DNA of 58,641 nt from a virus (Duplodnaviria; Caudoviricetes). The notes beneath the pieces were generated by a model that saw nothing but the letters and a program-made list of their open reading frames with translations, made no database searches and had not been told where the DNA came from. A program made the translations under genes and the position numbers. Below, in pieces: positions 19,514-58,493 of this stretch. How positions within the stretch are numbered: the first letter of the stretch is position 1; every line of letters starts with the position of its first letter. The stretch is from positions 1 through 58,641 of IMG/VR virus record IMGVR_UViG_3300022906_000004. One strand, 5' to 3'.

Positions 19514-20149
19514 GTGGCAAAGGAACCAGACACCCACAACGTGGACGTCAGCATCCGAACCCTGGTCATGAGGGCGGCACGCAACCGCGTCCAGATGATC
19601 CGCCAGTTCGAGAAGGCCGCCACCGGCGTGGCTAGCACCACCATGGCGTCAGTAGGCAGGGAGATCCTGACCAACTGGAGGCCGGAGAAGACCAGAGCCG
19701 TTGGCAGGGTGCAAGGCGCACCCACGGACGCCGCAGGCAATCGGCTCACCGAGCGCGGACACCGCAAGTACACCAAGAGCGACATGGACGCGGTGCCCGA
19801 GTTCGACTCGGCAAACGGCACGCGCGCCGTACGCGCCGCGCAGCTGTTGAACCACCTCCGGCGCGTCTCCGACCCAGCACGCGGCACCACCCTCGGGCCC
19901 ATCGCGGCCGTCCGCAAGGTCATCGAAGCCGAGGGGCTGGCGGACTTCGAGATCCAGGACAAGACGCTGGACAAGCACCTCAGCGCGGCGGAACGCGCGG
20001 TGCTGAAGCCGCTGCGGTTCACGCTCCCCGAGAACGTGTACAGCAGGATCGTCGCCCGCCTGAACGACAACGGGTGCACCGTCACGCGGGCCCTGGAGGT
20101 CGGACTGGAAGAGTTCGCCCGCACCGGCAAGACCAACCCGGAAGGATGA
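19514..20149 (+). CDS. Putative DNA-binding regulator (possible ribbon-helix-helix repeats)
   Basis: GTG after GAGGAGG; first gene of the + operon; basic; PLRFTLPENVYSRI..TVTRALEVGLEEF resembles RHH. Confidence 0.6.
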   Translation: MAKEPDTHNVDVSIRTLVMRAARNRVQMIRQFEKAATGVASTTMASVGREILTNWRPEKTRAVGRVQGAPTDAAGNRLTERGHRKYTKSDMDAVPEFDSANGTRAVRAAQLLNHLRRVSDPARGTTLGPIAAVRKVIEAEGLADFEIQDKTLDKHLSAAERAVLKPLRFTLPENVYSRIVARLNDNGCTVTRALEVGLEEFARTGKTNPEG

Positions 20150-42600: not shown

Positions 42601-44460
42601 TCACGGGGTGCTGTCGGCCGTCGCGGCGGACTCGCCGGTCGGCTGGACCTGCAGCACCAGGTGAATGGACTCGACGCCTCGGAACGCGGTCGTCTCGAAG
42701 GACTCCGAGAACGTCTGGAAACGGTTCTGCCCGTTGAGCGTGGAGTCACGGACCACGCCCAGGTCCAGCGTCCCGCCGTCGAGGTAGAGCCAGTCGCCCT
42801 CGCGGAACAGCACCGTGGACACCGGCGTCGGGAACCCGGGCACCGGGCTGTTCGTGGCCAGCAGCGTGTAGAACTGGGCCGGGGTCACGATGTCCGTGCC
42901 GAGGTCCACGTCCGGCGGGTTGATCCCGTCGAGGTGAAAAGTCACGTTGACGTTGCGGACGGCGAACCAGCGCGCCATCTCCTCGTCGGCGACCGCGAGC
43001 GACACGAGGCCGTCGCCGACCATCTGCATCGCGATGTCCGCGCGGAGCATGTCGCGGAACCACAGCGGGCAGATCCACCGCAGGGGCGCGTTGTCGTTGA
43101 GACGGTGCACGTTGCGGTAGTAGGCGATCATCCTGTCAAGGGTCGGCAGGGTGTCGCGGACCGCGCCCAGCACCTTCGTGCTGTACACGTTCTTGGACGC
43201 GGTGGTCAGCTGGGTGAGCAGCCGGTTCTCCGCGAACCGCGCGTGCGCGATGCGCTGCGCCGCGATGGTCGAGTCCATCCACTCCGGGTCGAACCGGGTG
43301 CTCATGTTCGAGAACGTGAGGCACTGGTAGATGGCGTCCACCTCGGCGGACAGCACGCCGGGGCAGTCGATTTCGACGCACGTCTTGGGCACGAGCGGGT
43401 CGGCCTCGTCGTCGGTCGGGGTCCACACGCCGATGCCACCGGTCTGGGTGACGCCGCGCAGGGCCGGGCGCCACTGGATGCCGCCACGCTCGGCGCCGAA
43501 CCGGGTCAGCGCGTCGCGGACCGGGCGGTCCTCGTCGCCGACGGTTTCGATGTCGTAGAGAGTCTCCAGCGGGGCGCACAGGCCAGCGGCCGTGAGGGCG
43601 TCGCCGTCGGGGCCCACCGCCACCTGGACTTCGGTGGACTGGTTTGCCAGGGCGTGCGTGCGCTGCGCCTTGCGAACCACCTTGTCCACGGTCGCCATGT
43701 TGGTGAACGCGGAGACGCCCCGGCGCAGCATGCGCTCCTCGGGGTACTCGGTGCGGATCGTGGCCACGGCGTAGCGCTCGTAGCCGCGCACGTTCAGGCC
43801 GGAGACGGCCTGGCCCTTCTGGGAGAACGCGTTGATCAGCTGTTCGCGGCTCAGCTGCTGGCCCGGCTCGACGCCCGGCACGCCACCAACTGCGGTGGTG
43901 CGCATGGTGGCGCGCGGCAGGCCGGTCGCCACGGCGCCAGCAGGTGTCTTGTTGACGCCACCCAGAGGGCGGCGCGCGGAGGCGGTCACGGCGCCCTCCC
44001 CGGTGTCGGTGGTGTCGCCGTCGCCCTCGGGCGCGGCAGGCTTGTCGCCGTCCCCTGCACTGGCCTGGCCAGCGGGGTCCACGGTCGCGGGGTCGGTGGG
44101 GTCGGGGGCGCCTTCACCGGCGGCGGGCGCGGGCGACGCTGGCGCGGTGGCCGGTGCTCCCGCCTCGGGGGCCGCCGGGGCTTCGGGGGCCGCCGGGGCG
44201 GTGAGGTCGTCCATCTCGGCGAACTGGGCCGACTGCTTGTCGGCCAGCTGGGAGCGGCTGACGGTCTCCGCCTTCAGCTGCTTGGCTGCCGCCAGCAGGA
44301 CGCCGAAGCGCTCGACACTCTCCTGGGTGGCGGGCTTGCCCGCGTACTCGGCCTGCAGCGCCTCGCCCTCGGCACGGATCGCGGCCAGTGCGGCGCCAAT
44401 CTCGTCCGTGGTGGCTTCCTCCAGGCGGCCCAGAATGTCCGCGTTGAACTTCGCGGTCAT
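42601..44460 (-). CDS. Major capsid (hexamer) protein with N-terminal scaffold-like region
   Basis: LTAAGLCAPLETLYDI, RGGI, LDGGTLDLGVVRDSTLN.NRFQTFSESFE; ATG after GAGAGG. Confidence 0.9.
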   Translation of the reverse strand: MTAKFNADILGRLEEATTDEIGAALAAIRAEGEALQAEYAGKPATQESVERFGVLLAAAKQLKAETVSRSQLADKQSAQFAEMDDLTAPAAPEAPAAPEAGAPATAPASPAPAAGEGAPDPTDPATVDPAGQASAGDGDKPAAPEGDGDTTDTGEGAVTASARRPLGGVNKTPAGAVATGLPRATMRTTAVGGVPGVEPGQQLSREQLINAFSQKGQAVSGLNVRGYERYAVATIRTEYPEERMLRRGVSAFTNMATVDKVVRKAQRTHALANQSTEVQVAVGPDGDALTAAGLCAPLETLYDIETVGDEDRPVRDALTRFGAERGGIQWRPALRGVTQTGGIGVWTPTDDEADPLVPKTCVEIDCPGVLSAEVDAIYQCLTFSNMSTRFDPEWMDSTIAAQRIAHARFAENRLLTQLTTASKNVYSTKVLGAVRDTLPTLDRMIAYYRNVHRLNDNAPLRWICPLWFRDMLRADIAMQMVGDGLVSLAVADEEMARWFAVRNVNVTFHLDGINPPDVDLGTDIVTPAQFYTLLATNSPVPGFPTPVSTVLFREGDWLYLDGGTLDLGVVRDSTLNGQNRFQTFSESFETTAFRGVESIHLVLQVQPTGESAATADSTP

Positions 44461-44599
44461 GCTCTTGGTTCCTCTCATGCGTGGGAGCGGAGAGCGTGAC
44501 ACGGCTGGGCCGATGGGGCGTCTCAACGCGGCTGGGCCGGTGGGGCGCGGTTGTTCTCCGTGAGCAGGACGCTAACGGAATGTGGGCGTGGGTGTCGCG
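44461..44599 (-). promoter_or_regulatory. Capsid leader with promoter-like site and direct repeat
   Basis: GCGACA-CCCAC..-TAGCGT, GAACAAC, twin GCCCCAyCGGCCCAGCCGyG repeats. Confidence 0.45.
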
Positions 44600-44624
44600 T
44601 GGGGTCTTGCATGTGTGCACAGCA

Positions 44625-44659
44625 GTGAACCCCGCGTCCTGGCGATACGCGGGGTTCAC
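44625..44659. terminator. Stem-loop, putative terminator
   Basis: 13-bp inverted repeat GTGAACCCCGCGT/ACGCGGGGTTCAC. Confidence 0.65.
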
Positions 44660-44669
44660 GGTCAGGGGG

Positions 44670-44987
44670 TCAGGTGAGACTCTTGCGCTTGCGCTTGAAC
44701 TCGTCCGCCTTCGGGCACGTCTTGTAGTGGTTGGTGCGGAGCTTGACCCCGGCGGCCAGCATGGCGACGCGAATGCCGCGCTTCTCGATACGGCCGCCGC
44801 GCAGCGCGGGCCGGTCGCTGCGCGGGTCCATCTCGATCAGGTAGGTACCGGCGTCGGCGTTGGGCGTCGGGTCAATGATCGTCCAGACCTCGGCGTCTTT
44901 CTTGGTCTTGCCGGGTACCTTCACGAACGCCACGTCTGCTCCGCACCCCTTGCAGGTGCGAATCAGGCTCAGGGGGATCTCGTTCAT
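44670..44987 (-). CDS. Zn-ribbon protein
   Basis: CKGCGA..IDPTP..G..HYKTCPKADEF motif; ATGA overlap. Confidence 0.7.
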   Translation of the reverse strand: MNEIPLSLIRTCKGCGADVAFVKVPGKTKKDAEVWTIIDPTPNADAGTYLIEMDPRSDRPALRGGRIEKRGIRVAMLAAGVKLRTNHYKTCPKADEFKRKRKSLT

Positions 44988-45181
44988 TCCGCCACCGACA
45001 GGCTCGAATGTAGCCGGAGCATGAAGGCGCACGAGCCGCAGACGTGGGCCGTGGCGGTGGCGCCCTTGGAGCGGCCACGCGTGATGGTGACCGTCAGTTC
45101 CTGCGTGGCTTCCCGGGTGCACGGGGGGATGGGTTCGGCGAACAGGTGGTCTTTGCTGCAGACCCTTGTCGTGGTCTCCAT
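44984..45181 (-). CDS. Small Cys-containing protein
   Basis: ATG after GAGGA; VCGSC. Confidence 0.6.
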   Translation of the reverse strand: METTTRVCSKDHLFAEPIPPCTREATQELTVTITRGRSKGATATAHVCGSCAFMLRLHSSLSVAE

Positions 45182-45192
45182 GGGCGTGGTCC

Positions 45193-45321
45193 TCACGGTC
45201 GGACGGCGTGCCACCAGTGCGCCCAGGTCGCCAGCCCGATGGCGCCGTAGATGCCGATGCGGAGCAGTAGGCCGTGGAGCGCGTCCCGTCGGGTGTACGG
45301 GCGGTGGGCACGTCTGGTCAT
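45193..45321 (-). CDS. Small membrane peptide (42 aa, leaderless, not in ORF track)
   Basis: ATG 6 nt after TACAGT -10 box; one TM helix. Confidence 0.5.
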   Translation of the reverse strand: MTRRAHRPYTRRDALHGLLLRIGIYGAIGLATWAHWWHAVRP

Positions 45322-45327
45322 GACGCC

Positions 45328-45410
45328 ACTGTAGCCCCGGGTTGACACCCACGCAAGGGATGGGTAGTGTTCGTCGCGTCAGGAACAACCCCCCGAGGGA
45401 AGGACCCCCG
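45328..45410. promoter_or_regulatory. Conserved element on + overlapping a divergent - promoter
   Basis: + TTGACA-17-TAGTGT..GGAACAAC..GAAGGACC; - TTGCGT-17-TACAGT. Confidence 0.8.
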
Positions 45411-45620
45411 ATGTTCAACGTCATCGCACACGACATGCTCACCGCCCAGGCCGTGGAACTCACCACCGAGCAGCGCGCCGAACTGGTGAAGCGCTGCGAC
45501 CGCCAGCGGCGGTTCGCCACGGCCGCCAGCGGCTACGTGTGCATCGACAAGCAGTCGATGCAGGTCAACGTCTACACCCCCGAGGGCGCTCGTATCGGCT
45601 ACCTGACCTACTGGCTCTGA
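45411..45620 (+). CDS. Hypothetical protein (cassette gene)
   Basis: ATG positioned by the leader. Confidence 0.75.
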   Translation: MFNVIAHDMLTAQAVELTTEQRAELVKRCDRQRRFATAASGYVCIDKQSMQVNVYTPEGARIGYLTYWL

Positions 45621-45624
45621 CATC

Positions 45625-45715
45625 TACTAGCCCCCTGCGGTTGACACCCACAACCGCAGGGGGCTAGTATCATCTCAGCACCAAGGAACAACCCGACAGG
45701 GAAGGACCCAAGATC
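45625..45715 (+). promoter_or_regulatory. Conserved element embedded in a 19-bp perfect hairpin
   Basis: Hairpin 45625-45669; TTGACA-18-TAGTAT; leader. Confidence 0.85.
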
Positions 45716-45883
45716 ATGAAGAACAGCACCGCAGGCCAGCTCCCCACCAAGCCTTGCGCCCAGGCGTACAACACGTGGAACCCGAGCCACCGGGCCCACG
45801 ACTGGCTCTGCAAGCAGGAGTTCCCCGAGGTTGACGCCCGGTGCCCCGGCTCCGTCCTGAAGTCGCGCACCAGCGCCCGGTAG
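45716..45883 (+). CDS. Small hypothetical protein (55 aa, cassette gene, not in ORF track)
   Basis: MKNSTAGQLPTKPC..H.AH.W.C..CPG; ATG positioned by the leader. Confidence 0.7.
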   Translation: MKNSTAGQLPTKPCAQAYNTWNPSHRAHDWLCKQEFPEVDARCPGSVLKSRTSAR

Positions 45884-45890
45884 TAGAGCG

Positions 45891-45970
45891 CTACCCCCTG
45901 TTGACACCCACGGTCAACGGGGGGTAGTCTTGTCTCAGCAGGAACAACCCCTCCCGGAAGGACCAGCACC
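45891..45970 (+). promoter_or_regulatory. Conserved element embedded in a 15-bp hairpin
   Basis: Hairpin 45891-45927; TTGACA-18-TAGTCT; leader. Confidence 0.85.
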
Positions 45971-46378
45971 ATGACCAGCACGATCAGCCTCACCATGAAC
46001 GAGATCGGCAAGGGCGTCGCCGAGGTCTACGACGGCACTTACCAGGTCGGCCTCATCACGTGGAGCCCCAACCCGGTCAGCGGCATCGTCTCGACGTGGT
46101 ACGCCACGTACGCGAACGGCGACGAGACCGTCACCTGCATGAGCCGGGACGAGGCCCTGGAGATACTGCGGCTGCAGCACGCGGCCGTCCGCCGGTTCTC
46201 GCGCTCCCTGCGGTCCATCCGCCCGGCGGGCCAGGAGGGCCGGGAGCGGGACATCACCGTCGACTGGGACCGGGGCTACAACACGGCCCTGCGTGACGTC
46301 GAGCGCCTCCTGCAGGAGGTCGTGGGCGTGGCGCCAGACGGCGAGGGGTTCACGGCAATCACCCGAGAGGAGCGCTAG
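45971..46378 (+). CDS. Hypothetical protein (cassette gene)
   Basis: ATG positioned by the leader. Confidence 0.8.
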   Translation: MTSTISLTMNEIGKGVAEVYDGTYQVGLITWSPNPVSGIVSTWYATYANGDETVTCMSRDEALEILRLQHAAVRRFSRSLRSIRPAGQEGRERDITVDWDRGYNTALRDVERLLQEVVGVAPDGEGFTAITREER

Positions 46379-46381
46379 ACG

Positions 46382-46543
46382 GTGACAAAGAAGAAGCCGC
46401 CCGAGGAACACGGCCGCCCAGGTCGTCCCCCGGGCGGCGTCGGGGCGGTCAAGAACTCGAAGTGCCCCAACGGGCACGTCGCCAACACCCAGAATCAGTG
46501 TTTCGACAGCACCTGTGTGCACTACGTGCGCAAGGGCCTGTGA
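46382..46543 (+). CDS. Small Cys-containing protein (53 aa)
   Basis: GTG after GAGGAG; CPNGH..C...C; GTGA overlap. Confidence 0.55.
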   Translation: MTKKKPPEEHGRPGRPPGGVGAVKNSKCPNGHVANTQNQCFDSTCVHYVRKGL

Positions 46544-46668
46544 GCGACGAGAAGCCGGACCAATCCCAGGACACCACCCGGGACTGGTCCGGCGAGGAAG
46601 TCCAGGCGCTGCAGGCGCAGCGCCAGCGGGAAGCCGAGTTGCTGCGCAAGCAGCGGGAGAAGGAGTAG
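46540..46668 (+). CDS. Small charged protein
   Basis: GTGA overlap. Confidence 0.5.
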   Translation: MSDEKPDQSQDTTRDWSGEEVQALQAQRQREAELLRKQREKE

Positions 46669-46672
46669 CCCT

Positions 46673-46786
46673 GTGGCCGACAAGCCGACCGACGAGGAGA
46701 TCCTGGCCGTGATCGCGGCCAAGGAACTGGAGGACGCGCTGGACGTCGACGCCGCGCAGCCGCCAGCGGACGCGGGTGACGAGTGA
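46673..46786 (+). CDS. Small acidic protein (37 aa)
   Basis: GTG after AAGGAG; GTGA overlap downstream. Confidence 0.5.
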   Translation: MADKPTDEEILAVIAAKELEDALDVDAAQPPADAGDE

Positions 46787-47016
46787 GCAAGTCGAAGCCG
46801 CGCTGCCCGCGCACCAGTACCGACCAGCACGCCAGCGGCTGCTACCAGGTGCACTACCCGGCGTGCAACAAGACCGAGCACACGGAGCACCTGGATCGGG
46901 CCTGCTACTACCAGAAGGGGCCCAACGAAGGGCAGCTCAAGTGCACGACCCCGCTGCACACCCACGACCGCGAGAAGTGCGCCGAGGCCATCGGCCCACT
47001 GTGCGGCGGCACGTGA
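46783..47016 (+). CDS. His/Cys-repeat small protein
   Basis: QHASGCY, HTEHLDRACYY, HTHDREKC; resembles 11549..11731. Confidence 0.7.
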   Translation: MSKSKPRCPRTSTDQHASGCYQVHYPACNKTEHTEHLDRACYYQKGPNEGQLKCTTPLHTHDREKCAEAIGPLCGGT

Positions 47017-47094
47017 CCCGAAGGTGAGGTGATCGGAATGCGGGCCCGTCCGGACAAACGAGACGTTTGGGTGCACCGGACGGGCCCACGCATG

Positions 47095-47268
47095 TCACGA
47101 CACGCTATCGGCCGCCACGAACAGCGCGATCGCCGCCAGCACGGTGGCCGCCCCGGCGAGTACCCACCGCACTCTGGTGAAGCGGGCGTTCGGGGCCGGT
47201 GGCAGGACCACCGCGAGTCCGAGCAGCAGCACCGCCAACGGCACCATGATCACCTTGAGCGTGTCCAC
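47095..47268 (-). CDS. Small two-TM membrane protein (not in ORF track)
   Basis: GTG after GAGGAGG; two hydrophobic helices. Confidence 0.6.
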   Translation of the reverse strand: MDTLKVIMVPLAVLLLGLAVVLPPAPNARFTRVRWVLAGAATVLAAIALFVAADSVS

Positions 47269-47277: not shown

Positions 47278-47517
47278 TCATTCGGTATCAACCTTGCTCT
47301 GGTCCTCCGGGACCGCGATCCCGTTGTCCTCCAGGGCCTGAATCAGCACCGCCTGAAAGCGCAGCCGGTCAGTCCGGTCCTGGTTCACGATCGTGTGGAT
47401 AGCCTTGGCGTCCCGCTTGACGGGAAGCAACACCTTGAACGTGGCCGCCGCAGTGACGCTCGCGGTCAGCAGGCCCGCGAAAGCCGCCATGCCTCCGAAT
47501 ACCGTGCCCCACTCCAC
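47278..47517 (-). CDS. Small membrane-anchored protein
   Basis: GTG after GAAGGGAG; TM helix then IHTIVNQ. Confidence 0.65.
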   Translation of the reverse strand: MEWGTVFGGMAAFAGLLTASVTAAATFKVLLPVKRDAKAIHTIVNQDRTDRLRFQAVLIQALEDNGIAVPEDQSKVDTE

Positions 47518-47528: not shown

Positions 47529-50018
47529 TCAGCTCTTGGCCTTCTTCTCCTCCCAGGACGCCACGGCCGCGCACGCCTCCGCTCGACTGCCCGCGTTGAC
47601 CTGCTGGCTACCTGGCCAGTTCGTGTCTCCGGTGCTGCACATCTTCTTCGCCGCGTTCACGGCCGTCGCGATGGCCCGCGACTGGTCCATGCCCTTCTCC
47701 TGCAGGTGCTTCGCGATGCGCTTGATGTACTTCGGCAGGCCACCGGCCTTGGTGACCCAGTTCGCCTTCTTCGCGAACGCGTCGTCATTGGTGGCCGCGA
47801 ACACCTCCGCCCACTCGTCGGCGAACTCGCCTCCCAGCCACGGATGGTCGGCGTTGAACGCCAGCAGCATGTCCACCTCGTGGGCTGACTGCATGGCCGC
47901 GTAAGTGGGGGCGTCGTCGGTGAGCGTGACCAGCTGGTCGGCGGCCACGCCCTGCATCATGCCGTACAGGGCTGTCAGTCGGTCCGTCACAGGCTCCTCC
48001 GGTGGGGGCGGGCTGGCGGCCAGGGTTCCGGCGGCCACGAGTGCCAGCGGCTCCCCGGACGCCACGAGTGCCCGGAACGGGACCGGGAATCCGGGGCTGT
48101 TGACCGCGAGGGCGGCCACGAGTTCGAGGTTGCCGCCCCGCTTGCGCCAGTCTCCGGACAGCGCGGCGCCCTTGATCTTGTAGGCGGTGTCGTCGTCGAG
48201 GTGCGGCATGACCCGACCGGCCACCCAGATGCCGAAGGCGTCTTCGCCGACCGCGATTTCGGCGGCCGCCGTGCACGTGTTGTCGTAGTGGGCCGCCACC
48301 TCGGCGATCGACATGCCCTTCCGGATCGCGGCGTGCCCTCCACTCCCGGGCGCCCGGGAGACGCTGGCGTAGCCGACCGGCACGGTGACGCCGTTGCCGT
48401 CCGCGTCCCGTGCCCGCGCCCCGTGCACCCGGAACTCGGCGTAGTTGGTGGCCGACCGTGGCGGGGTGGTGCAGCGGTCCGCGAACGCCGTGTGGCAGGT
48501 GCCCCACAGGGCCATGTGCCCGAACACGCGGCCGTCGTCGGTGACCGTGAACGGCGTGGGCCCGTCCAGGCGCGGATCCTCGAACCACTCGACGGGCGGC
48601 AGGTCGGCCGCCGAGGCGACCAGCACCGCGCCGCCGCCGCCCAGTGGGTAGTCGGTGACGTCGTCACCGATGGCCACCCGGATGCGGTCGAACACGACCG
48701 GCCCGGTGTAGGTGACCTGCCGGGGGTCGAGGCCGTATCCGGCGGTCACGTGCGGGACGAACGGCTCGTGCTGCAGGGGGAAGTTGACGTCGCCGACGGC
48801 GTTGCGGACGGCGTGCACGACGTCGTTGCGGAGCCATTCGATGGCTTCGCGGTCGCCCTTGCCGTCGAGCAGGTACACCGTGGCCGGGTCGTGGCCGTTG
48901 TCGCCGTTCGGGTTGAAGATGGCGTGGGCGAAGATGCCCGCCTCCAGTGGCCCCTCCTGCGGCTTGCTGCGGGAGATCTTGCCGCCGCGCACCTCGGATG
49001 GGTCGCCTCCGGTCGCGGCTATGCGGGCCCGCTCGACTTCGAGCATGGCCTTCTGGTCGGTGAGCGTGAGAGCGGCCCGGTGGACGGCGGCCACCATGTC
49101 CGGCTCCCACGTGTCGACCTGGTCGCCGAGGTACGCCAGCGTCAGGTGCAGCTCGTCAGCGGTGTCGCCGCCGGGCACCACCAACATCTGCGGGTTCGCC
49201 GGAACGAGCGCGACCATGCCGGAGGTGGAGAAGTCCTGTTCGACGGGCCCGCCAGCCGGATAGGCCTCCTCGAAGTCGAAGGACTGCCGCTCGACGTCGC
49301 TGCCCGCGCCGCCCGGGAAGTGCAGCCCCTCGATAGCGAAGTGCTCCTGCACCTGACAGCCGTGGCAGAGGTCGCCGAGTTCGGCGGACAGGAACATCGG
49401 CGTGGCGGCCGACGCGACCAGCTCGTGCTCCTCGCGGGTCGCGCCGATGTCGACGCCGTCGAGGGTGATGTAGGCGCCGGAGAACGCGGGGATGCCAACG
49501 AGCGTGGTGGCGGCGATGACGGACCGCTGCATGGAGATCCGGGCATAGTCGGCCTGGTCGGCCAGCTCCCCGTTGGGGCCCTGGAATTCGGCCACCACTT
49601 CGGTCATGTCGACGGAGTTGCCGCGCAGGGCGCCGTCTTTGACCAGCTGGAACGCGCTCTTGGCGGGAGGGGCCGGGACGTCCTTGTATATCCAGCCGCG
49701 TCCGACCCAGGCGAAGGTGCCTTCGGGCAGCGTGCTGCCGTCATATAGCTGAGCCTCCGGCCCGGGGATGCGCTCGGCGCTGGTGATCGCTCCGACGTGC
49801 CAGGTGGCGGCGTCGCCAGTGTCGCCATGCGTAGACCGAGTGGCCGCGTACATCGGGAAGGGGAGGTCGCGTACTTCGACACTGCCAGGCTCGATATAGC
49901 GACGGTCGGAGGTCTCCAGGCCCTCGATCACCATCACGGGCAGCACAACGGGCACGGCGCCCTCGGGCACGTCGCTGGCGGCGGCCGTGGCGTCCGACTC
50001 GACGATGGATGCGGTCAC
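47529..50018 (-). CDS. Capsid maturation protease-like protein with inserted 2H phosphoesterase domain
   Basis: EGLETSDRRYI..LPFP, IAATTLVGIPAF, GRVFGHMALWGTCH, GEDAFGIWVAG, LSGDWR..LELVAALAVNSPGFP; HLT and HVT 2H motifs; position between portal and capsid. Confidence 0.75.
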   Translation of the reverse strand: MTASIVESDATAAASDVPEGAVPVVLPVMVIEGLETSDRRYIEPGSVEVRDLPFPMYAATRSTHGDTGDAATWHVGAITSAERIPGPEAQLYDGSTLPEGTFAWVGRGWIYKDVPAPPAKSAFQLVKDGALRGNSVDMTEVVAEFQGPNGELADQADYARISMQRSVIAATTLVGIPAFSGAYITLDGVDIGATREEHELVASAATPMFLSAELGDLCHGCQVQEHFAIEGLHFPGGAGSDVERQSFDFEEAYPAGGPVEQDFSTSGMVALVPANPQMLVVPGGDTADELHLTLAYLGDQVDTWEPDMVAAVHRAALTLTDQKAMLEVERARIAATGGDPSEVRGGKISRSKPQEGPLEAGIFAHAIFNPNGDNGHDPATVYLLDGKGDREAIEWLRNDVVHAVRNAVGDVNFPLQHEPFVPHVTAGYGLDPRQVTYTGPVVFDRIRVAIGDDVTDYPLGGGGAVLVASAADLPPVEWFEDPRLDGPTPFTVTDDGRVFGHMALWGTCHTAFADRCTTPPRSATNYAEFRVHGARARDADGNGVTVPVGYASVSRAPGSGGHAAIRKGMSIAEVAAHYDNTCTAAAEIAVGEDAFGIWVAGRVMPHLDDDTAYKIKGAALSGDWRKRGGNLELVAALAVNSPGFPVPFRALVASGEPLALVAAGTLAASPPPPEEPVTDRLTALYGMMQGVAADQLVTLTDDAPTYAAMQSAHEVDMLLAFNADHPWLGGEFADEWAEVFAATNDDAFAKKANWVTKAGGLPKYIKRIAKHLQEKGMDQSRAIATAVNAAKKMCSTGDTNWPGSQQVNAGSRAEACAAVASWEEKKAKS

Positions 50019-50476
50019 GGCTTGGGCTCCCTCTGCTCTTGGGCCAGGATGTTCTCACCGATACGCACGGCGGCCTCGGTTCCCTCGGTGCGCGCCAGGT
50101 CGCGGGCCACCGCGTCGCGGGCCCGCTGGTCGGCGTCGGCCTGCAGGCGCTGCAGCGCGGAGCGGAACGGGTCGTCCGGCTTGGCGATCGAACGCACGAG
50201 CGCGGAGATGCCCTCTTCGAGGTGGGTCTTGGCGATGTTGGCCCACCGCTGGTCGGTGCCGTCGCGCAGGACGATGGCGGCCCACACGTCGGCCACGTTC
50301 TCCTGCAGCTCTTTCACGGCGTTGATCAGCTTCACGTCGTCGGCCGGGAGGTCGCGGTAGCCGCGCACGCCCTGGGCGGTCGGGGTGGGCCCGTAGCCTG
50401 GCTGCCCCGCCGGTTGACTCGGTGGCGTGTCCACCGACTTGATCGGGTGGCCGTGGCTGTACTGGTCGGGGGTCAC
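50015..50476 (-). CDS. acb2: Acb2-like anti-CBASS cyclic-nucleotide sponge
   Basis: GYRDL..INAVKEL..RWANIAKTHLEEGISALVRSIAKPDDPF matches the Acb2 family signature as I recall it. Confidence 0.8.
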   Translation of the reverse strand: MTPDQYSHGHPIKSVDTPPSQPAGQPGYGPTPTAQGVRGYRDLPADDVKLINAVKELQENVADVWAAIVLRDGTDQRWANIAKTHLEEGISALVRSIAKPDDPFRSALQRLQADADQRARDAVARDLARTEGTEAAVRIGENILAQEQREPKP

Positions 50477-50601
50477 GCTGTCTCGCCTTCCTCGGTGTCT
50501 GGCTCCTCCAGGACGACGACCGGCGTCGTCTCGTCCGTCGGCCACCGTTCGTCGATGGGCTCCTCGCGAACCGGTTCGGGGGTCGCGGCCTTATCGGGCA
50601 T
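50473..50601 (-). CDS. Small acidic protein (42 aa, not in ORF track), candidate ART immunity protein
   Basis: ATG after GGAGGT, overlapping the ART stop; GTGA coupling to acb2; Glu/Asp/Pro-rich. Confidence 0.55.
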   Translation of the reverse strand: MPDKAATPEPVREEPIDERWPTDETTPVVVLEEPDTEEGETA

Positions 50602-53600
50602 GGTTGGTCACCTCCGCTGTCACACGTCGTGGGCGCCGTCCGTCGGGGCCGCTGTCGCCCACGATCCGCAACGTCCACCCGCGCCCGCCCAGTAGCTCGG
50701 CTTCCTGTGACGCGTCGGTCAGTACCTCGTCGTCGGGCGCGAACTGGGAGAGGCGCACCATCGGCGCACCAGCCGGTACCCGGATGTCGAGCACCATGCC
50801 GCCGTCCGCTGAGGGCCGGTGCTCCGCGAACCGCTGGGCGATGCGCTCGTCAGCGGTGGTGGACAGGAAGGCGTCATCGCGCCACTCCAGGCCGGTCAGG
50901 TCGCCGTCGACGCGGTCGCCGAACATGGCTCGGGGGTCTTTGATGCCCCGGTGGGTGACGATGTCGGACGTCAGCTTGGACTTGTCCAGGGCGCTGTCCA
51001 TCTTGGCCACGGTCTCGCGGTTGAAGTCGCTGCCGGAGCCGGTGCGCAGGTAGCGGTTGGTGTGTTCGTAGCCGGGGCCCTTGTACATACGGAGGATGTC
51101 GACTTCGCTGTCGATGCCGGGGTCGCCGTTGACGCGCAGCTCGGGGCTGGCCATGCCCAGGGGGGCGGCTTTGAGGGCGTCGCGCCCGCTGGCGGGGGCG
51201 TCCTTCGTTTCCCGCTTGGCTGGCTTGGCGCGGGTCTTCTTCGCGGGCCCGGCCCCGGTGGTGGAGCCCTTGGCCTTTTTGTCGGCCTGCTCCTGTTCGA
51301 GGCGCTTGCGGGTGGCGGGCCGCATCTTGTGCGGGTAGTTGGGCGTGCCGGGCTTGCCGTGCAGGAAGTCCTCGCGCAGCGCGGTGACGGTGTCGCTGGT
51401 GGGCGGGGTGGCCGTGAGGGACATGGCGGAGGCGCCGCCGTCGGGGAGCGCGTACACCGTGAACCACGAGCACAGGCATCCGGCGTGGTCGCCGGGGTGA
51501 TACCAGGGGGAGCCGATCCACTCGTCGCCCGGCTGGACTGCCAGCACGTCGTCGGACCAGCTGGTGAAGCGCTGCCCGTCGAGGTTCTCGTGCGGGTGGA
51601 ACGTGTTGCGCGGCATGTAGCCGTAGCGCCACTCCATGCCGACGTGGACCGCGCCCCGGTCGCTCAGGGTGCCGCGCACGGTGGAGCCGTTGCCGAGGCC
51701 GGTAACGGGGAGCCCTTCGGCGGTCTGGTCGCCGCCGATCTCGGCGAGGGCGTCGCGCACGAGCCTGGGCGGGATGTCGAAGTCTGGGACCTCGCCGGGC
51801 ACGTCGACGCCGTCGCCGGTGCGGAACATGACCTGCTCCAGGTGGGCGTCAAGGGAGTCCTGCAGGCGCGCCCACGCGGGGTCAATGCGGGCCTCCATTT
51901 CGGCGGCCATCTGGCGGGTGATGACCTGCGCCTCCAGGCTGTCATCGGACAGGCCAAGCATGCGCTGTACGCGCCGGGCGACCTTGCGGGCGGCGTCGCG
52001 CACGAGGGTGGCGAACTTGCCGGACAGGCCCTCCCAGGCGCCCGCAAGCAGGAAGCGCTGCCCCGCGTTGAGCGCCAGACACTGGTCAGGCCCGAGGGCG
52101 GCCGCCCACCGATCCACGGGCAGCGTCTGCAGCTGGGCTCGGACCTCGTTGGCCAGCTTGGGGCTGGTGGCCTTGGAGCGCAGGCGGGACCCGGCGCGGC
52201 GCAGCGCCTCTTTGGCGGCCTGGTCGGCGGCGGCCAGGATCTGGTCGCGTAGCGCGGTGTCGATGTCGCCGAGGTCGCGGGCCGCCGTCGCGTCGAGGGT
52301 GTAGTTCGGCAGGTAGGTGACGCCATGGCGCTGCCCGGTCACGAACCGGTCGACCTGGTCGGGGGTGCCCACGAGCGGGCGGACGTCGGCGGCGGCCAGC
52401 TGTAGGGGTTCGTCCTGCGGCAGTCCGAGCAGGGCGGCGTGCACGCGCGGGGATGACACGCACTGGCCGGTCGCGTCGGCGTACGAACCGCACGCGCAGG
52501 TGTTGGGCCACGGGTGCGCGGAGGCGGCGATCCCGTCGGGCGCGGTGGCGGGGGCGCCGGTGCCGCCGGGTGCGCTGCTGTCGCCGTTGCCCTCTCCGGC
52601 GCGGGTGCCGATCTCGCCCTGTCGTCCGTGCGGTCGGCTGGTCGAGGACGGGAACACGGGTAGGTCGGCGACGCCTTCCTGCTCGGCGTGCCAGGCGAGG
52701 ATCGCGGCGGCCGTGGCCTGGTCTACGCCGTTCTTGGCGGCGATCAGCTGCAGGGCCTCTTCGGCGGTGGGGGCGTCGCCGTCGTTGAAGCCGAGGGCTT
52801 CGCGTCCGGCGGCCGGGCCGATCAGGATGCGGTCGAGGGCGTCGAGGGCATCCTGGCGGCGGTTGGGGTTCTCGGTGATCTGCCCGGCGTCATACCAGAT
52901 GCGGACGCGCGCCAGCAGTTCCGGCGGGTACTGGGTGGCCAGCGCGGTCCGCAGGAACGAGCCGGTGAGGCTGTCGACCATGAGCCGAATCGAGGGCTCC
53001 AGGTGGTGGCGGAACGTACTGTGGTCGATCTGCCAGGCGGTCCAGTGGTTGGCGTCGGCCATGCCGGTGAGGATCTCCGGCGGGATGTCGAGGCCGTTGG
53101 CCATGCGCCCGAGGGACTTCGCCAGCTTTTCGAGCAGCAGGGGGGACTCTTCGCGTTCGAAGCGCTCGAAGCGGACGGCTTTGATGTCGTCGGCGGTGCC
53201 GGTGATGACCATGGGGACGACGCCGCCAGCGTCGCCCTCGTTGGCGATGGGTGCGAGCAGCGCGGCCTCGAAGTCGGCCATCCACTGCTTGCGGCGCCCT
53301 TCGGGGGTGTCGTCCTCTTCCCTCATGTTGCGACTGGTGGCCATGCTGTCGGGGACGAACAGGGCGCCGTTCTGCATGATGCGGGAGCGGGACACGGCCC
53401 GGAGTTCGCGGCCGACCAGGCAGATGTCTTCGAGGACGTCGCCGAGGGCGTTCAGGGCGGAGTCGCCGAGGTGCGGGTAGGCCGGGTGGGGCACCCACAG
53501 GCGGTGGATCTCTTCCTTGTCGAGGTTGAGCTTGCGGGGCTGGCCCAGCTCGTTCTTGATCGTGATGCTGTTGCCTTGGATGTCGACGGCCTCGACTGAC

Positions 53601-54190
53601 CGGATCTTCCACTCCTCCTGTCCGGTGAGCGGGTTGGTGAAGCCGTGCAGCCAGCAGTCGCCCGCGACGTCGTAGTTCTCCGACCAGACGCCGAGGAACT
53701 CGTAGCCCGCCCCGAGGGGGAGGCGCGCCAGTTCGGCTTCGGCGGCGGCGCAGAAGTCCTCGGGCAGGGTGACGCGCTTGGCCTTCTCTGGGTCGTCGTC
53801 GTTGCGCAGCGACACGGGGATCGGCTCGTCGTCGTCGTCGATGATCTCGGCGACGTAGAAGCGGACGCGGGAGATGGCTCGTGCCCGGAACTGGAGGGCG
53901 TACCGGAGTTCGGCGATCATGTCGCGGTAGCGCCACGCGAGTGCCTGCCATGGCTGGCGGTTGCCTGCCGCGATGCGCAGCTGCTGTGCGGACATCTTGC
54001 CGATTTTGACGCCGGATGCGCGCAGTACCGAGGGGGCGCTGCGTGCGTACTCGACGCGTTCGAAGGACTGGCGCAGGCGTGCGATGGCGCCGGGGTCCAC
54101 GCTGTCCTCACGGCCTTGCGCGGCACGGTGGACGGCGGCGCGCTGGGCGTCGTCGAGGGTTTCGGCGAGGGCGCCCCACCTGCTGCTCAT
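50591..54190 (-). CDS. Portal + MuF-like + ADP-ribosyltransferase fusion
   Basis: Portal motifs (WQALAW, IHRLWVPHP, GLDIPPEILTG.ANHWTAWQI); MuF-like W..H..LDG..HPGDHAGCLC; C-terminal THRG, FLSTT, EAELL. Confidence 0.85.
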   Translation of the reverse strand: MSSRWGALAETLDDAQRAAVHRAAQGREDSVDPGAIARLRQSFERVEYARSAPSVLRASGVKIGKMSAQQLRIAAGNRQPWQALAWRYRDMIAELRYALQFRARAISRVRFYVAEIIDDDDEPIPVSLRNDDDPEKAKRVTLPEDFCAAAEAELARLPLGAGYEFLGVWSENYDVAGDCWLHGFTNPLTGQEEWKIRSVEAVDIQGNSITIKNELGQPRKLNLDKEEIHRLWVPHPAYPHLGDSALNALGDVLEDICLVGRELRAVSRSRIMQNGALFVPDSMATSRNMREEDDTPEGRRKQWMADFEAALLAPIANEGDAGGVVPMVITGTADDIKAVRFERFEREESPLLLEKLAKSLGRMANGLDIPPEILTGMADANHWTAWQIDHSTFRHHLEPSIRLMVDSLTGSFLRTALATQYPPELLARVRIWYDAGQITENPNRRQDALDALDRILIGPAAGREALGFNDGDAPTAEEALQLIAAKNGVDQATAAAILAWHAEQEGVADLPVFPSSTSRPHGRQGEIGTRAGEGNGDSSAPGGTGAPATAPDGIAASAHPWPNTCACGSYADATGQCVSSPRVHAALLGLPQDEPLQLAAADVRPLVGTPDQVDRFVTGQRHGVTYLPNYTLDATAARDLGDIDTALRDQILAAADQAAKEALRRAGSRLRSKATSPKLANEVRAQLQTLPVDRWAAALGPDQCLALNAGQRFLLAGAWEGLSGKFATLVRDAARKVARRVQRMLGLSDDSLEAQVITRQMAAEMEARIDPAWARLQDSLDAHLEQVMFRTGDGVDVPGEVPDFDIPPRLVRDALAEIGGDQTAEGLPVTGLGNGSTVRGTLSDRGAVHVGMEWRYGYMPRNTFHPHENLDGQRFTSWSDDVLAVQPGDEWIGSPWYHPGDHAGCLCSWFTVYALPDGGASAMSLTATPPTSDTVTALREDFLHGKPGTPNYPHKMRPATRKRLEQEQADKKAKGSTTGAGPAKKTRAKPAKRETKDAPASGRDALKAAPLGMASPELRVNGDPGIDSEVDILRMYKGPGYEHTNRYLRTGSGSDFNRETVAKMDSALDKSKLTSDIVTHRGIKDPRAMFGDRVDGDLTGLEWRDDAFLSTTADERIAQRFAEHRPSADGGMVLDIRVPAGAPMVRLSQFAPDDEVLTDASQEAELLGGRGWTLRIVGDSGPDGRRPRRVTAEVTNHAR

Positions 54191-54203: not shown

Positions 54204-54620
54204 TCAGTCGCGGGTGCCGAGGAGTCCGACCACGGCGGAGATGGCCAGCGGCGTGGCGGCCCACATCCACCAGGTGCCGGTGCTGGCGAGGAGCGCGCAG
54301 GCGACGGACACGTAGAGGCCGGTGCACCAGTAGCAGGTGGCGAGGTAGGCCAGGGGTGCCATGCCTTCGTATGCGTCGAACTCGCGCTGCTCGCCAGCGG
54401 TCACTCCTCGTGGAAACTCGAAGCCGGAGGCCTCGCGCACTGTCTCGTTCTGGCGGGCCACGGCGAGCCCGGCGGGCCACCGCTCGTTGGCCCAGGCGAC
54501 GAACCGCGCTCGCGCCACGCCGAGGGGGAACGCGTCGGCGACGATGGACCGGGTGATCCGGAACGCGGCCAGCATGGTGACGATCAGGCCGGATGCGGTT
54601 TCAATCCATCCCAGGTCCAT
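54204..54620 (-). CDS. DUF1360-like membrane protein
   Basis: AAFRITRSIVAD, LATCYWCTGLYVS; precedes portal. Confidence 0.7.
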   Translation of the reverse strand: MDLGWIETASGLIVTMLAAFRITRSIVADAFPLGVARARFVAWANERWPAGLAVARQNETVREASGFEFPRGVTAGEQREFDAYEGMAPLAYLATCYWCTGLYVSVACALLASTGTWWMWAATPLAISAVVGLLGTRD

Positions 54621-54622
54621 GG

Positions 54623-55465
54623 TCACCTCCCTGCCGTGGTGTCGGCCAGCTTGACGGCGTCCGCCCACGAGATGCGGTTACGGGTCCAGGCCGGTGTCCA
54701 GTTCTTCAGCTTGCGCGCGGAGCACCCGCACCCGCCGTAGGGCTGGACGTTGACCTGGCCAGCGCTCGTGAAGATCGGGATACCGGCGTTCATGGCAGCG
54801 TATCCAGTGACCGGTTCCTTGGTCTTCGCGAAGTCCACCCCCGCATACCAGGCGGGGGTGGCGCCGGTGGTGAACGTCTCCGGCTCGGCGGGGGCGGTGC
54901 GGTACACGTAGAGGCCCTGGGGCGTGAGGAACACCTTGCACGTGTTCCATGGGGTGGCGCCGGGTTCGGGCCGGAAGTAGGCGGGGAACCACTGGGCGAT
55001 GACGGCGGTAGGGATGGGGATGCGGGTCAGCTCTCGCACCGTGGCGACGGTGGCGGGGTCGCTGGTCTCGAACTCCATGTTACCGGCGGGTACGGGTGCG
55101 ACCTGCGGATTCTCGGCACCCTCCTGCCGCGCCACCGCCTCGGCGCCCGGGTCGGCCGCCTGCTCGAACGCCCGGTCGAACTCCAGTTCGATCCCCGAGT
55201 CGTCCGGCTTGAACTCCAGGTGAGCGACGCCCGGCTGGCGTACCGGCTCCCCCACGGGAGCGCCCTCCTGGTCAATGCGCTGCAGGCTGAGACCCTGCGC
55301 CTGGGCTGCGGCGGCGGTCTTCCCGCCCTGACGTCCGGCAAGCCGGATGCTCTCGGCGAGCGGGCCCGTGCCAGCGGCGAAGCGGCTGGGCTCGTCGCCA
55401 CCCTTCGCGGCCGTGGCCTTCTTCGCCGCTGGCGTCCGGCTTGCCGGTGTCTTCCTGGGTGGCAT
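54623..55465 (-). CDS. Hypothetical protein
   Basis: ATG after AGGAGG; C-terminal GGCGCS..LKNW. Confidence 0.7.
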   Translation of the reverse strand: MPPRKTPASRTPAAKKATAAKGGDEPSRFAAGTGPLAESIRLAGRQGGKTAAAAQAQGLSLQRIDQEGAPVGEPVRQPGVAHLEFKPDDSGIELEFDRAFEQAADPGAEAVARQEGAENPQVAPVPAGNMEFETSDPATVATVRELTRIPIPTAVIAQWFPAYFRPEPGATPWNTCKVFLTPQGLYVYRTAPAEPETFTTGATPAWYAGVDFAKTKEPVTGYAAMNAGIPIFTSAGQVNVQPYGGCGCSARKLKNWTPAWTRNRISWADAVKLADTTAGR

Positions 55466-55722: not shown

Positions 55723-56646
55723 TCAGCTGGTCATCTGGAGGATTCGGGGGGTGGCTGGTGGGAGGCTGGTTCGGTGCTGGCGGGCGGTTCCTGCCAGGAC
55801 GTTGTTCATCCACTGCTGGATGTCGGGTTGGCCGATGTCGAGTGCGACTCCGCGTCCGGGGGCGCCGTCGAGGCCTTCGGTGCAGCTGTCGTAGTTCTGG
55901 TCGCCGTCGCCGATGACGGAGAGCCGCAGGATGGGGCTGCCGTCGAAGTCGGGGGATTTGAGTGGGGCGCCGCTGTCGCCGAGGCAGCCCATGGTCTTGC
56001 TGTTGGTGATGTGGCTGAAGCACACCTGGCTGGCGACGATGGCGTAACAGCTGGGGTCGTTGACGGTCTTGGCGACCATGGTCTGCAGTGGGCCTTGGTA
56101 CCAGCTGCTGCAGGTCTGTCCGGGCGGGCCGTCGCACACCCAGCCGTAGCCGTAGGCCTGGGTGACGGCTCCGAGGGGCAGGGATGGCTTCTCCCACTTC
56201 ATGACCTGCACTGGGTCGCCGTCTGGGGCGGTCAGCGGGGTCTCGTTCTCCAGGAGCATCAGCATGCCGTCGTAGGCGAGGGTGTTCGGGTCGAACGCGG
56301 GGTTGTACCAGAACTGTCCTGGCACCACCTTGATCTCCGCGTACTCGCCGTTGCCGGTGGTGTTGTCGGTGCCGCCGATGCGGGCGGTGGTGTCACCGGC
56401 GCCGGGGGCGGTGAAGGAGTAGACGCAGTGGGCGGCGGTGAAGACCCAGCGGGTTTTGTTGGGGTGGCCCTGCTTGTCGTCGATCAGGGTGCCGGTGCAC
56501 CGGTTGCGGTTGGGGTTGTCGGTCCACAGGGACACGGCGCCCGGGTTGGTGGCGGCGTCGCTGCCGTTGACGATGGCGGGCGCCGTGGTGGGTGCTGCCA
56601 GCAGGCCGGTCAGCACGATCACCAACCCCAGGATGATCTTTCTCAA
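55723..56646 (-). CDS. Secreted trypsin-like (S1) serine protease
   Basis: Signal peptide, mature IVNG start, CTGTLI, TAAHC, YDGML, GDSGAPL catalytic triad. Confidence 0.9.
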   Translation of the reverse strand: MRKIILGLVIVLTGLLAAPTTAPAIVNGSDAATNPGAVSLWTDNPNRNRCTGTLIDDKQGHPNKTRWVFTAAHCVYSFTAPGAGDTTARIGGTDNTTGNGEYAEIKVVPGQFWYNPAFDPNTLAYDGMLMLLENETPLTAPDGDPVQVMKWEKPSLPLGAVTQAYGYGWVCDGPPGQTCSSWYQGPLQTMVAKTVNDPSCYAIVASQVCFSHITNSKTMGCLGDSGAPLKSPDFDGSPILRLSVIGDGDQNYDSCTEGLDGAPGRGVALDIGQPDIQQWMNNVLAGTARQHRTSLPPATPRILQMTS

Positions 56647-57849: not shown

Positions 57850-58170
57850 TCAGCAGTCCTCCGGGTAGGTCGCGCAGTAGTCGGTGAGGTCCGGGTAGCT
57901 GTCGGGCAGCTCGTTGACGGTCGCGACCATGGCGACGATCAGGATCACCCAGAAGATCACGCCCAGGTAGCCGAGGACGAGCCCGGCGATGGCCATGCCG
58001 CGCCCGTCCTTGCGGTTGCGCTTGACGTCACCCAGGGCGACGTGGCCGAAGATCACGGCCAGCAGGCTGAAGCCGACGATGCCCAGGACCATGGCGGCGA
58101 TGGCCATGCCGCTGGTCTGGCGGACGATGATCGGGCGTGCCTCGACGCCCTGGTGGTGCTGGTTGGTCAC
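57850..58170 (-). CDS. DUF4190-like membrane protein
   Basis: TSGMAIAAMVLGI..AVIFGHVAL..GRGMAIAGLVLGY signature. Confidence 0.8.
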   Translation of the reverse strand: MTNQHHQGVEARPIIVRQTSGMAIAAMVLGIVGFSLLAVIFGHVALGDVKRNRKDGRGMAIAGLVLGYLGVIFWVILIVAMVATVNELPDSYPDLTDYCATYPEDC

Positions 58171-58217
58171 GGGGTAACTCCTGGTTTCGGTCGGGTTGTC
58201 GGGTGGGGTTGCGGAGG

Positions 58218-58493
58218 CTAGCGACGTGGACCGTAGCGGTACGTGACCACGCCGGAGGCGATGACGCACAGGGCCAGCCAGCCGAACATGCCGCTGAGCA
58301 GCTGCAGCCAGTTGCCCGTTAGCAGTGTCAACAGGGCGGACGGCAGGAGCACGAGGCCGGTGATGAGCGAGACGGCCAGGGCCATGACGCGTCGGCCGCG
58401 CTCCGCGTTCGCCTTGGCGTCGGCGGCGGCCCGGTCGTGGCCGTTGGTGTTGCCGGAGGCGGTCGCGGCGTTGCCGGGGTCGGGGATGGGCAT
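58218..58493 (-). CDS. Two-TM membrane protein
   Basis: ATG after AGGAG; two hydrophobic helices. Confidence 0.65.
   Translation of the reverse strand: MPIPDPGNAATASGNTNGHDRAAADAKANAERGRRVMALAVSLITGLVLLPSALLTLLTGNWLQLLSGMFGWLALCVIASGVVTYRYGPRR

Follow-up and report, generated by a model that had tools for sequence, protein, structure and literature searches.

What does a predicted immune-signal sponge do between the portal and protease genes of a phage, and do the enzymes fused to its two neighbours serve the same end? The locus that raises this question lies in the IMG/VR virus record IMGVR_UViG_3300022906_000004, a complete genome on a single contig of 58,641 bp (~70% G+C), which was analysed at full length and is referred to below as the window. 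A sequence-only reading had described four consecutive minus-strand genes at this locus as an integrated counter-defence block, and all four open reading frames (ORFs) are present. They encode a 1199-aa fusion of a portal domain, a middle region and an ADP-ribosyltransferase (ART) (50591..54190, with a third-position G+C content, GC3, of 0.91), a 42-aa proline-rich acidic ORF (50473..50601, with GGAGG 9 nt before its ATG), a 153-aa Acb2-family protein with N- and C-terminal extensions (50015..50476, GTG start at 50476), and an 829-aa prohead (capsid maturation) protease polyprotein (47529..50018). All three long ORFs have a coding-type GC3 (0.86-0.91). With moderate confidence, we read the segment from portal to protease as a head unit that carries a sponge, a packaged ART and 2H phosphoesterase domain, and a mini-ORF linked to the ART, all of them as independent modules.

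The 153-aa protein is a genuine, well-supported member of the Acb2 family and a predicted sponge, as the sequence-only reading had suggested. PF24729, the Acb2/Tad1 hairpin core, matches 50180..50362 on the minus strand over model positions 1-58 of 58, with an E-value of 3e-13 and 50.2 bits against a cut-off of 27. Searched alone against PDB, the protein matches p26, the Acb2 of phage PaMx33, at 9e-6, and a profile of its family matches p26 at 2.7e-12 and T4 Vs.4 at 0.65; at E<=10 the profile matched no Tad1 chain and no further chain in PDB. In hhalign, a comparison with the 76-aa homologue from Pseudomonas phage 5400 gives 39% identity across 71 columns free of gaps (probability 99.2%, E 1.2e-19), and because this homologue aligns without gaps the core is assigned to the short Acb2 form. 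For the same reason, a deletion was rejected as an account of the ~19 residues by which the protein falls short of PaMx33 Acb2. The acb2 gene of JBD67 is 228 bp long, and its product binds 3'3'-cyclic GMP-AMP at ~99 nM and cyclic triadenylate at ~3.5 nM, with Y11 and K26 serving the dinucleotide pocket and R67 and T74 the trinucleotide pocket, according to passages of PMC10312549. The equivalents of all four residues are identical in the window protein. Acb2 characteristically forms a hexamer that takes up three dinucleotides and two trinucleotides.

AlphaFold2 models the 153-aa protein with a mean predicted local distance difference test score (pLDDT) of 82.1, as a helical hairpin whose helices span residues 45-70 and 76-98 (block pLDDT 87-98), and adds a long C-terminal helix at 103-147. 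A large protein collection holds 41 homologues; K55 and R77 occur in every one of them and Y40 in at least 90%. None has a descriptive name, the few that are labelled being called 'hypothetical protein', and several lie on contigs of ~58-60 kb. They share a conserved P-G-Y-G-P-x-P-T segment N-terminal to the core, which also bears on the choice of start codon. The longest ORF in the acb2 frame begins at 50545, and the GTG at 50476 is preferred because the upstream extension (50477..50545) has a GC3 of only 11/23 by hand count, vs 35/42 in the 42-aa frame, and because the homologues, too, start with this N-terminal motif.

The link between acb2 and head genes extends beyond the window. Six distinct close relatives were compared (L001, L002, L003, L004/L027, L005 and L025, where L004 and L027 count as one relative), and in all six acb2 lies between the portal fusion and a protease with the same succession of N-terminal domain, 2H domain and protease domain. 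The same slot holds acb2 in L011, whose portal is 42% identical and whose protease carries the 2H domain at its N-terminus, and in L014 and L016 the gene is found ~0.7 kb upstream of the portal gene, with a protease that has no 2H domain. The association with head genes that the sequence-only reading had expected in relatives is thus found in the six close genomes as well as in L011, L014 and L016. Thirteen more distant acb2 loci were also inspected. Late or structural surroundings occur at seven of these (L007, L011, L012, L014, L015, L016 and L019), with acb2 placed after major-tail-protein-like genes in L007, between terminase and portal in L012, between the major tail protein and the tape measure in L015, and between a peptidase and an endolysin in L019. 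Separately, an Acb2 homologue that is 54% identical over residues 28-114 lies at 8001..8261 of L021, a 123,761-bp contig of an Actinophytocola sp. metagenome-assembled genome (MAG). It may be a prophage, and it might give a clue to the hosts that the family reaches.

Flanked by the portal fusion and the protease, the slot behaves as a hotspot for accessory genes, of which acb2 is the constant resident in this clade. Its other occupants include a 29-aa hydrophobic ORF, a 122-aa ORF in L004/L027 and a ribbon-helix-helix ORF in L011. The 29-aa ORF directly follows the portal fusion in four relatives (L001 7727..7816, L003 3468..3557, L005 4282..4371 and L027 ~7428..7517) and is absent from the window. 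At the other end of the slot, the C-termini of the clade's Acb2 proteins fall into two alternative conserved tails, whose coding sequence reaches exactly to the protease start and includes the GGAG-type ribosome-binding site of that gene. The tail lies at 50015..50060 on the minus strand of the window, and at 8349 in L001, 8373 in L002 and 4171 in L003. Because of this overlap, the conservation of the tails may reflect the protease leader and not the function of the sponge. That the tails form a shared capsid-targeting peptide was considered and ruled out, since within the loci the motifs are confined to Acb2 ends, where they overlap the protease's ribosome-binding site.

The four genes are joined as the sequence-only reading had described. 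The portal fusion and the 42-aa ORF overlap by 11 nt, the stop codon of the 42-aa ORF shares GTGA with the acb2 GTG at 50476, and the acb2 stop codon shares GTGA with the protease GTG at 50018. These overlaps are real and at the same time ordinary in this genome, not above chance: a crude gene set has 47 adjacent same-strand pairs, of which 17 overlap, and in 11 of these the overlap is NTGA. With such overlaps the norm here, the further suggestion that coupling fixes the stoichiometry of the four products finds no support.

Downstream of acb2, the 829-aa polyprotein matches phrog_18402 (E 3.2e-74) and can be divided into four regions, all on the minus strand. The N-terminal domain (aa 1-235; 49314..50018) has no Pfam match and is conserved in L001-L005, L011, L014 and L016. 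It is followed by the 2H phosphoesterase domain (aa 236-470; 48609..49313), the protease domain that accounts for the phrog_18402 match (aa 471-680; 47979..48608), and a C-terminal region (aa 681-829; 47532..47978) with 40-50% identity in L001-L005. H509, H562 and S621 are invariant in 40 aligned protease domains and are the probable catalytic residues; this assignment is inferred, because neither Pfam nor a PDB search with the whole protein returned a sequence match for the protease. Together with the PHROG match, the invariant histidines and serine agree with the earlier description of a maturation-protease-like protein. The protease protein has tblastn matches in 1101 phage records, and among the organisms listed are Mycobacterium (705), Gordonia (207) and Microbacterium (132) phages, all of them actinophages. 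The best matches reach only ~40% identity over half of the query, and the features listed beneath them include head or capsid maturation protease, RNA ligase and hypothetical protein.

The two HxT motifs noticed in this protein are present at H291-x-T293 and H423-x-T425, with the histidines invariant and the threonines kept in at least 90% of 34 family members, and both these motifs and the superfamily matches described below identify the domain as a 2H phosphoesterase. Its family comprises 1030 cluster representatives at E<=1e-3. Searched alone, the domain is found in 349 cultured phage records, all from actinophages, and the annotations among the rows listed are RNA ligase, head maturation protease, and capsid maturation protease and MuF-like fusion protein. 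T4 Acb1 (gene 57B; L045 1953..2411) likewise bears the RefSeq label 'RNA ligase', which probably stems from the way the 2'-5' RNA ligase superfamily is named. From its partners, the 2H domain behaves as a mobile module. Among the best 150 representatives, 95 contain no other domain of the window proteins, ~39 contain the protease domain and three contain an ART. Pfam matches in 60 long representatives with no recognised partner comprise Portal_Mu (3), Phage_portal (2), ART (2), Zeta_toxin (2), GNAT (2), ClpP (1) and MuF (1). Single proteins that combine 2H and ART are P0159 (691 aa), P0134 and P0185, which indicates that both modules can ride on one carrier elsewhere. Upstream of these two domains, P0159 has an NCRC-type motif, which we take to be typical of MuF.

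On the other side of acb2, the portal fusion opens with a portal domain (aa 50-516; 52643..54043, minus strand) that matches the portal protein family phrog_776 at 1.1e-81. The middle region that follows (aa 521-1020; 51131..52630, minus strand) occupies the position of MuF in related head modules. It is conserved in nine genomes, L001-L005, L011, L014 and L016 among them, and a G-D-H-x-G-C-x-C motif is invariant in the nine sequences; this motif may resemble the MuF NCRC motif. The name portal-MuF-ART used in the sequence-only reading is not borne out for its middle term. PF04233 (MuF) did not match the region at E<=1, NCBIfam held no match, BLASTP was not significant, and both hhalign comparisons, with Mu gp30 (0.1%) and with the Gordonia phage Twonlo MuF-like protein (7.7%), were negative. 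The MuF label was accordingly dropped, and the middle region is described here as a positional analogue of the Twonlo MuF-like gene and nothing more. A tblastn search of INPHARED with aa 521-1199 returned no match. As a lead only, 9 of 30 matches in the ESM Atlas fall in clusters in which 47% of members carry PF04233.

The C-terminus of the fusion is an Alt/VIP2-family ART domain (aa 1027-1176; 50663..51112, minus strand), and the ART call of the sequence-only reading agrees with both its family match and its motif. PF03496 matches the C-terminal 170 residues with an E-value of 1.4e-10 and 41.2 bits against a cut-off of 23.4. Against PDB, the best match is Vip2 at 1e-6, followed by ExoT at 9.6e-5, and ExoS is also found. 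The motif consists of R1081, S1110 and E1163-x-E1165, and the arginine, the serine and the second glutamate are invariant in a five-sequence alignment. A D-x-E motif suggested by a pairwise phmmer alignment to Vip2 was rejected, as the five-sequence alignment places the invariant glutamate in E-A-E. The domain is thus a real Alt/VIP2-type enzyme domain with an R-S-ExE motif and a predicted activity. Just one of the six close relatives, L004/L027, carries the ART. A single-protein scan found no further relatives with it, and a scan with a two-sequence alignment recovered only the L004 contig. In the IMG/VR copy (L004 6782..7314), tblastn splits the ART into two pieces that lie in different frames, and the metagenome copy (L027 6781..7314) reads through as a single piece.

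The 42-aa ORF travels with the ART and not with Acb2. A small ORF of this kind is present in both ART-bearing genomes and in none of four relatives that lack the ART (L001, L002, L003 and L005), three of which have the 29-aa hydrophobic ORF instead. The only positional homologue, a 40-aa ORF at the same overlap in L004/L027, has M-P, T-P, I-x-x-R-W, D-E and P in common with it (~35% identity by hand count). The ORF in the window is acidic, as first described, with a net charge of about -11 by hand count. The homologue has a positive net charge; acidity is therefore not what has been conserved, and the description of an acidic mini-ORF applies to the window and does not characterise the gene. 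Pfam, PHROG and NCBIfam gave no family match for the 42-aa ORF, and the ESM Atlas gave no usable match.

Taken together, these observations suggest how the unit might operate. The 153-aa protein would be a soluble Acb2-type sponge with a short, JBD67-like core, made from a late head transcript that also carries the ribosome-binding site of the protease in the 3' end of acb2, and it would sequester cyclic di- and trinucleotide signals as the protease and capsid proteins appear. The portal fusion's ART and the protease's 2H domain would be tethered to proteins inside the prohead. Both would most likely be packaged and released with the DNA into the next host, as has been proposed in print for MuF or portal proteins that carry an ART or a 2H domain and, in the case of Alt/VIP2-type ART fusions to MuF, by likeness to T4 Alt (passages of PMC9503650 and PMC5512222); MuF polymorphic toxins are the subject of PMC5576092. 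This published alternative, in which head-fused enzymes act early in the next infection, was passed over by the sequence-only reading. Alternatively, the 2H domain may act in the cytoplasm before assembly. The 42-aa ORF would belong to the ART cassette, possibly as an inhibitor or chaperone that restrains the ART in the producing cell, a role suggested by two genomes. Since ART, 2H and acb2 vary independently among the relatives, they are read as separate mosaic acquisitions at a hotspot, and probably do not form one co-evolved machine. The idea of four genes as one integrated unit therefore finds no support: the ART is present in one of the six close relatives, and L014 and L016 keep acb2 beside proteases that lack 2H. 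Nor are the 2H domain and acb2 linked across cultured phages, as the 349 records with the 2H family all come from actinophages, and the 57 INPHARED phage records matching the Acb2 protein include no actinophage.

The substrate of the 2H domain is the point on which the rival explanations divide. Prohead proteases are described as activating CD-NTases (cGAS/DncV-like nucleotidyltransferases) late in infection in passages of 10.64898/2026.03.04.709575, and the premise that they trigger CBASS (the antiphage signalling system based on cyclic oligonucleotides) also appears in part of 10.1101/2023.05.21.541620. These sources back the same premise in the sequence-only reading, and because of them the timing of a sponge made with the protease fits. 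An integrated model goes further and holds that the 2H domain is an Acb1-like nuclease that cleaves CBASS-type cyclic oligonucleotides late in the cytoplasm, alongside the sponge and timed to the protease that triggers the alarm. We consider this model possible but doubtful. Its HxT/HxT tetrad with invariant histidines corresponds to the catalytic set of Acb1, whose hallmarks, in the part of PMC9117128 that describes them, are this tetrad, a compact fold and a C-terminal lid. The hhalign match to T4 Acb1 (85.3%, E 6e-6, 114 columns) spans both motifs and a C-terminal PVV-x-DR stretch, and the Acb1 family PF23474 is touched by 4 of the 34 family members (best E 1.2e-4) and 1 of the 60 long ones. 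Degradation of immune nucleotides by injected, head-fused 2H domains had moreover been proposed by Iyer et al. (passages of PMC5512222 and PMC9503650). However, E. coli ThpR scores about the same by hhalign (83.5%, E 8.3e-6, 57 columns), and the profile search of PDB is led by LigT-type enzymes (LigT 8e-5, PH0099 3e-4, ThpR 7e-3), with Acb1 at 0.059. The window domain itself has no PF23474 match, matching only PF13563 and PF02834, and it is larger, with 235 residues and 132 between its two histidines vs 69 in Acb1. The 2H domain and acb2 also occur without each other. Since the domain is about equally far from Acb1 and ThpR, cleavage of cyclic nucleotides is possible but unsupported, as is the earlier view of the domain as Acb1-like and not generic.

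The same comparisons allow another function, in which the 2H domain would be a LigT/ThpR-type enzyme for RNA ends or 2',3'-cyclic phosphates, directed against RNA-cleaving defences or the ADP-ribose-linked product of the ART, with no part in cyclic-oligonucleotide signalling. This assignment can be held tentatively at best. The best PDB matches are a 2'-5' RNA ligase and RNA 2',3'-cyclic phosphodiesterases, PF13563 is found in 31 and PF02834 in 12 of the 34 members, and a direct fusion to ART occurs in the 3 of the best 150 representatives mentioned above. An RNase role for 2H domains fused to MuF or portal was considered beside degradation of 2'-5' oligoadenylates in passages of PMC5512222. 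Yet every score from the LigT/ThpR-type hidden Markov models falls below its curated cut-off (PF13563 25.5 vs 27, E 1.5e-5; PF02834 19.8 vs 23.3; TIGR02258 18.4 vs 65.7), so that membership of LigT/ThpR is assigned at the superfamily level only, and the similarity to Acb1 is equally good. The Acb2-like protein could in principle also be a head-assembly or scaffolding factor that has the helical hairpin without sequestering signals. The slot does hold small unassigned genes in related modules, such as the 73-aa gp14 of Gordonia phage Twonlo, and the long C-terminal helix predicted by the model would suit such a role. However, the retention of all four ligand-contact residues, the 39% gap-free identity to a JBD67-type Acb2 and the occurrence of homologues outside head modules make a scaffolding function very improbable. 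At the other extreme, a layered defence against cyclic nucleotides within the head operon, in which the sponge is made ahead of the CBASS-sensed protease (with the ribosome-binding site of the protease inside acb2) and the 2H domain of that protease destroys the same signals in the cytoplasm or the next cell, would couple the trigger to its countermeasures; we think this unlikely.

Several observations also weigh against the reading of an independent sponge and packaged enzymes that we favour. Degradation or expulsion during maturation is the usual fate of prohead proteases, which makes it uncertain that the 2H fragment stays in the mature head; the domain might rather work in the cytoplasm at a late stage of infection, as the sequence-only reading had it. 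The column equivalent to T74 is absent from the set conserved in at least 90% of the Acb2 family, and predicted trinucleotide binding may therefore differ among its members. The N-terminal extension of the 153-aa protein is poorly modelled, with pLDDT <50 at residues 27-37. Among the thirteen distant acb2 loci, two have replication-type surroundings (Erf and a single-stranded DNA-binding protein in L029, a methyltransferase in L038) and four have a setting that could not be assigned (L008, L013, L018 and L022), so location in the head module is not universal. Finally, the association between the small ORF and the ART comes from two genomes only, at ~35% identity.

The unit sits in a genome that is siphovirus-type by its PHROG matches, and INPHARED holds no record with near-identical DNA for the genome or the block. 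PHROG matches place the large terminase subunit at 13113..14723, an endolysin at 15885..16706, Dit at 33441..34373, the tape measure at 34358..36940 and the major capsid protein at 42601..44526 (followed by two major-tail-protein-like paralogues), all on the minus strand, and an Erf-like protein at 20074..21681 on the plus strand. The terminase gene lies ~36 kb from the portal gene in the linear representation and does not adjoin the head module. The host is likely an actinobacterium, because the protease and 2H matches in named records are from actinophages. Prophage relatives were sought by a portal scan of prokaryote genomes, which gave only a distant 28% match on a 4.4-kb MAG contig.

Directly upstream of the portal gene, and kept there in L001-L005, is a gene for a 154-aa membrane protein with DUF1360 (54204..54668, minus strand; PF07098 E 3.3e-5, phrog_781 1.2e-18). 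Further upstream, a trypsin-family protease gene at 55723..56646 on the minus strand (PF00089 8e-13, with a weak lipoprotein-signal match) is surrounded by small membrane-protein genes, namely DUF4190 at 57850..58269 and the DUF1360 gene. Downstream, the 829-aa protease gene is followed on the same strand by a 79-aa small ORF with a hydrophobic stretch and no Pfam family (47278..47517) and a 57-aa hydrophobic ORF with weak, sub-cut-off matches to membrane-protein Pfam families (47095..47268). The unit ends at a hairpin on the minus strand (47040..47089), a likely terminator without a U tract by its folding energy of -36 kcal/mol (z -4.67; none of 200 shuffles folds equally well). No sigma-70-like promoter was detected on either strand of the block, and no minus-strand terminator pattern was found inside it. 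Between the protease unit and the major capsid gene, ~2.5 kb (44527..47030) hold small ORFs without a family match on both strands, and a comparable gap of 2.6-3.3 kb occurs in L002 and L004. The plus-strand ORFs at 45716..45883, 45971..46378 and 46783..47016 converge on the hairpin, which together with the hairpin places the major capsid gene outside the portal-protease unit.

To our knowledge, work on Acb2 sponges has until now dealt with phages of Gram-negative hosts. The homologue described here is well conserved and marks a clade of ~41 proteins in high-GC, actinophage-like genomes. No description was found of Acb2 in such genomes or of its fixed place directly upstream of a prohead protease. 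For actinophages this is a weak negative from the papers listed by a literature search, none of which mentions Acb2, and supplementary tables may list homologues. The text of PMC12393519 has no mention of Actinobacteri-, Mycobacteri-, Streptomyces, Actinomycet-, capsid or portal, the Acb1/Acb2 passages of 10.64898/2026.03.04.709575 contain no discussion of gene neighbourhoods, and a search of literature full text found no paper that joins a 2H phosphoesterase with a capsid maturation protease. The fixed place of acb2 upstream of the protease fits the report of prohead proteases as CBASS triggers and offers a natural case for a sponge timed to its trigger. In addition, the very common actinophage head domain that is usually annotated as 'RNA ligase' (349 records) is a 2H phosphoesterase that is as close to Acb1 as to ThpR, which makes its substrate of interest in cultured Gordonia or Mycobacterium phages.

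Each part of the unit is of a known kind, and the arrangement alone is new; ART and 2H domains joined to head proteins have been published before, as has the proposal that they act against nucleotide signalling. The closest counterparts of the sponge are the Acb2 proteins of PaMx33 and JBD67 (PDB 8H2J and 8IXZ, 'p26') and T4 Vs.4, which belong to the same Pfam hairpin family with the equivalents of Y11, K26, R67 and T74 kept, and its core has the length of the short 76-aa form. Unlike PaMx33 and JBD67 Acb2, the window protein is extended N-terminally by the conserved P-G-Y-G-P-x-P-T stretch and C-terminally by a helix of ~45 residues. Its gene lies between the portal fusion and the protease, whereas the canonical homologues are found after the endolysin gene in Pseudomonas phage 5400 and among replication genes in Aeromonas phage MQM1. 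T4 Acb1 (gene 57B) is likewise an HxT/HxT 2H enzyme, encoded beside ipI and 57A. Unlike this stand-alone protein of ~150 aa, the window 2H domain is embedded in an 829-aa polyprotein, has an insert of ~45 residues and is equally close to ThpR. The polyvalent or MuF polymorphic toxins and T4 Alt, an ART packaged in the head, resemble the window in a C-terminal Alt/VIP2 ART on a head-internal carrier, followed by a co-inherited small ORF, and in a head-fused 2H domain. The window differs from these MuF- and portal-fused effectors in that MuF homology of the carrier is not demonstrable, the carrier of the 2H domain is a prohead protease, and acb2 lies between the two carriers. Gene order is most similar in Gordonia phage Twonlo and Dexdertvirus-like actinophages, which have in succession a membrane protein, the portal, a MuF-like gene, a small ORF, a 2H-protease of ~900 aa, two small ORFs and a major capsid protein of ~630 aa. 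Twonlo differs in that its portal and MuF-like genes are separate, the ART is absent and a 73-aa ORF occupies the slot of acb2, with an identity to the window of at most ~42%.

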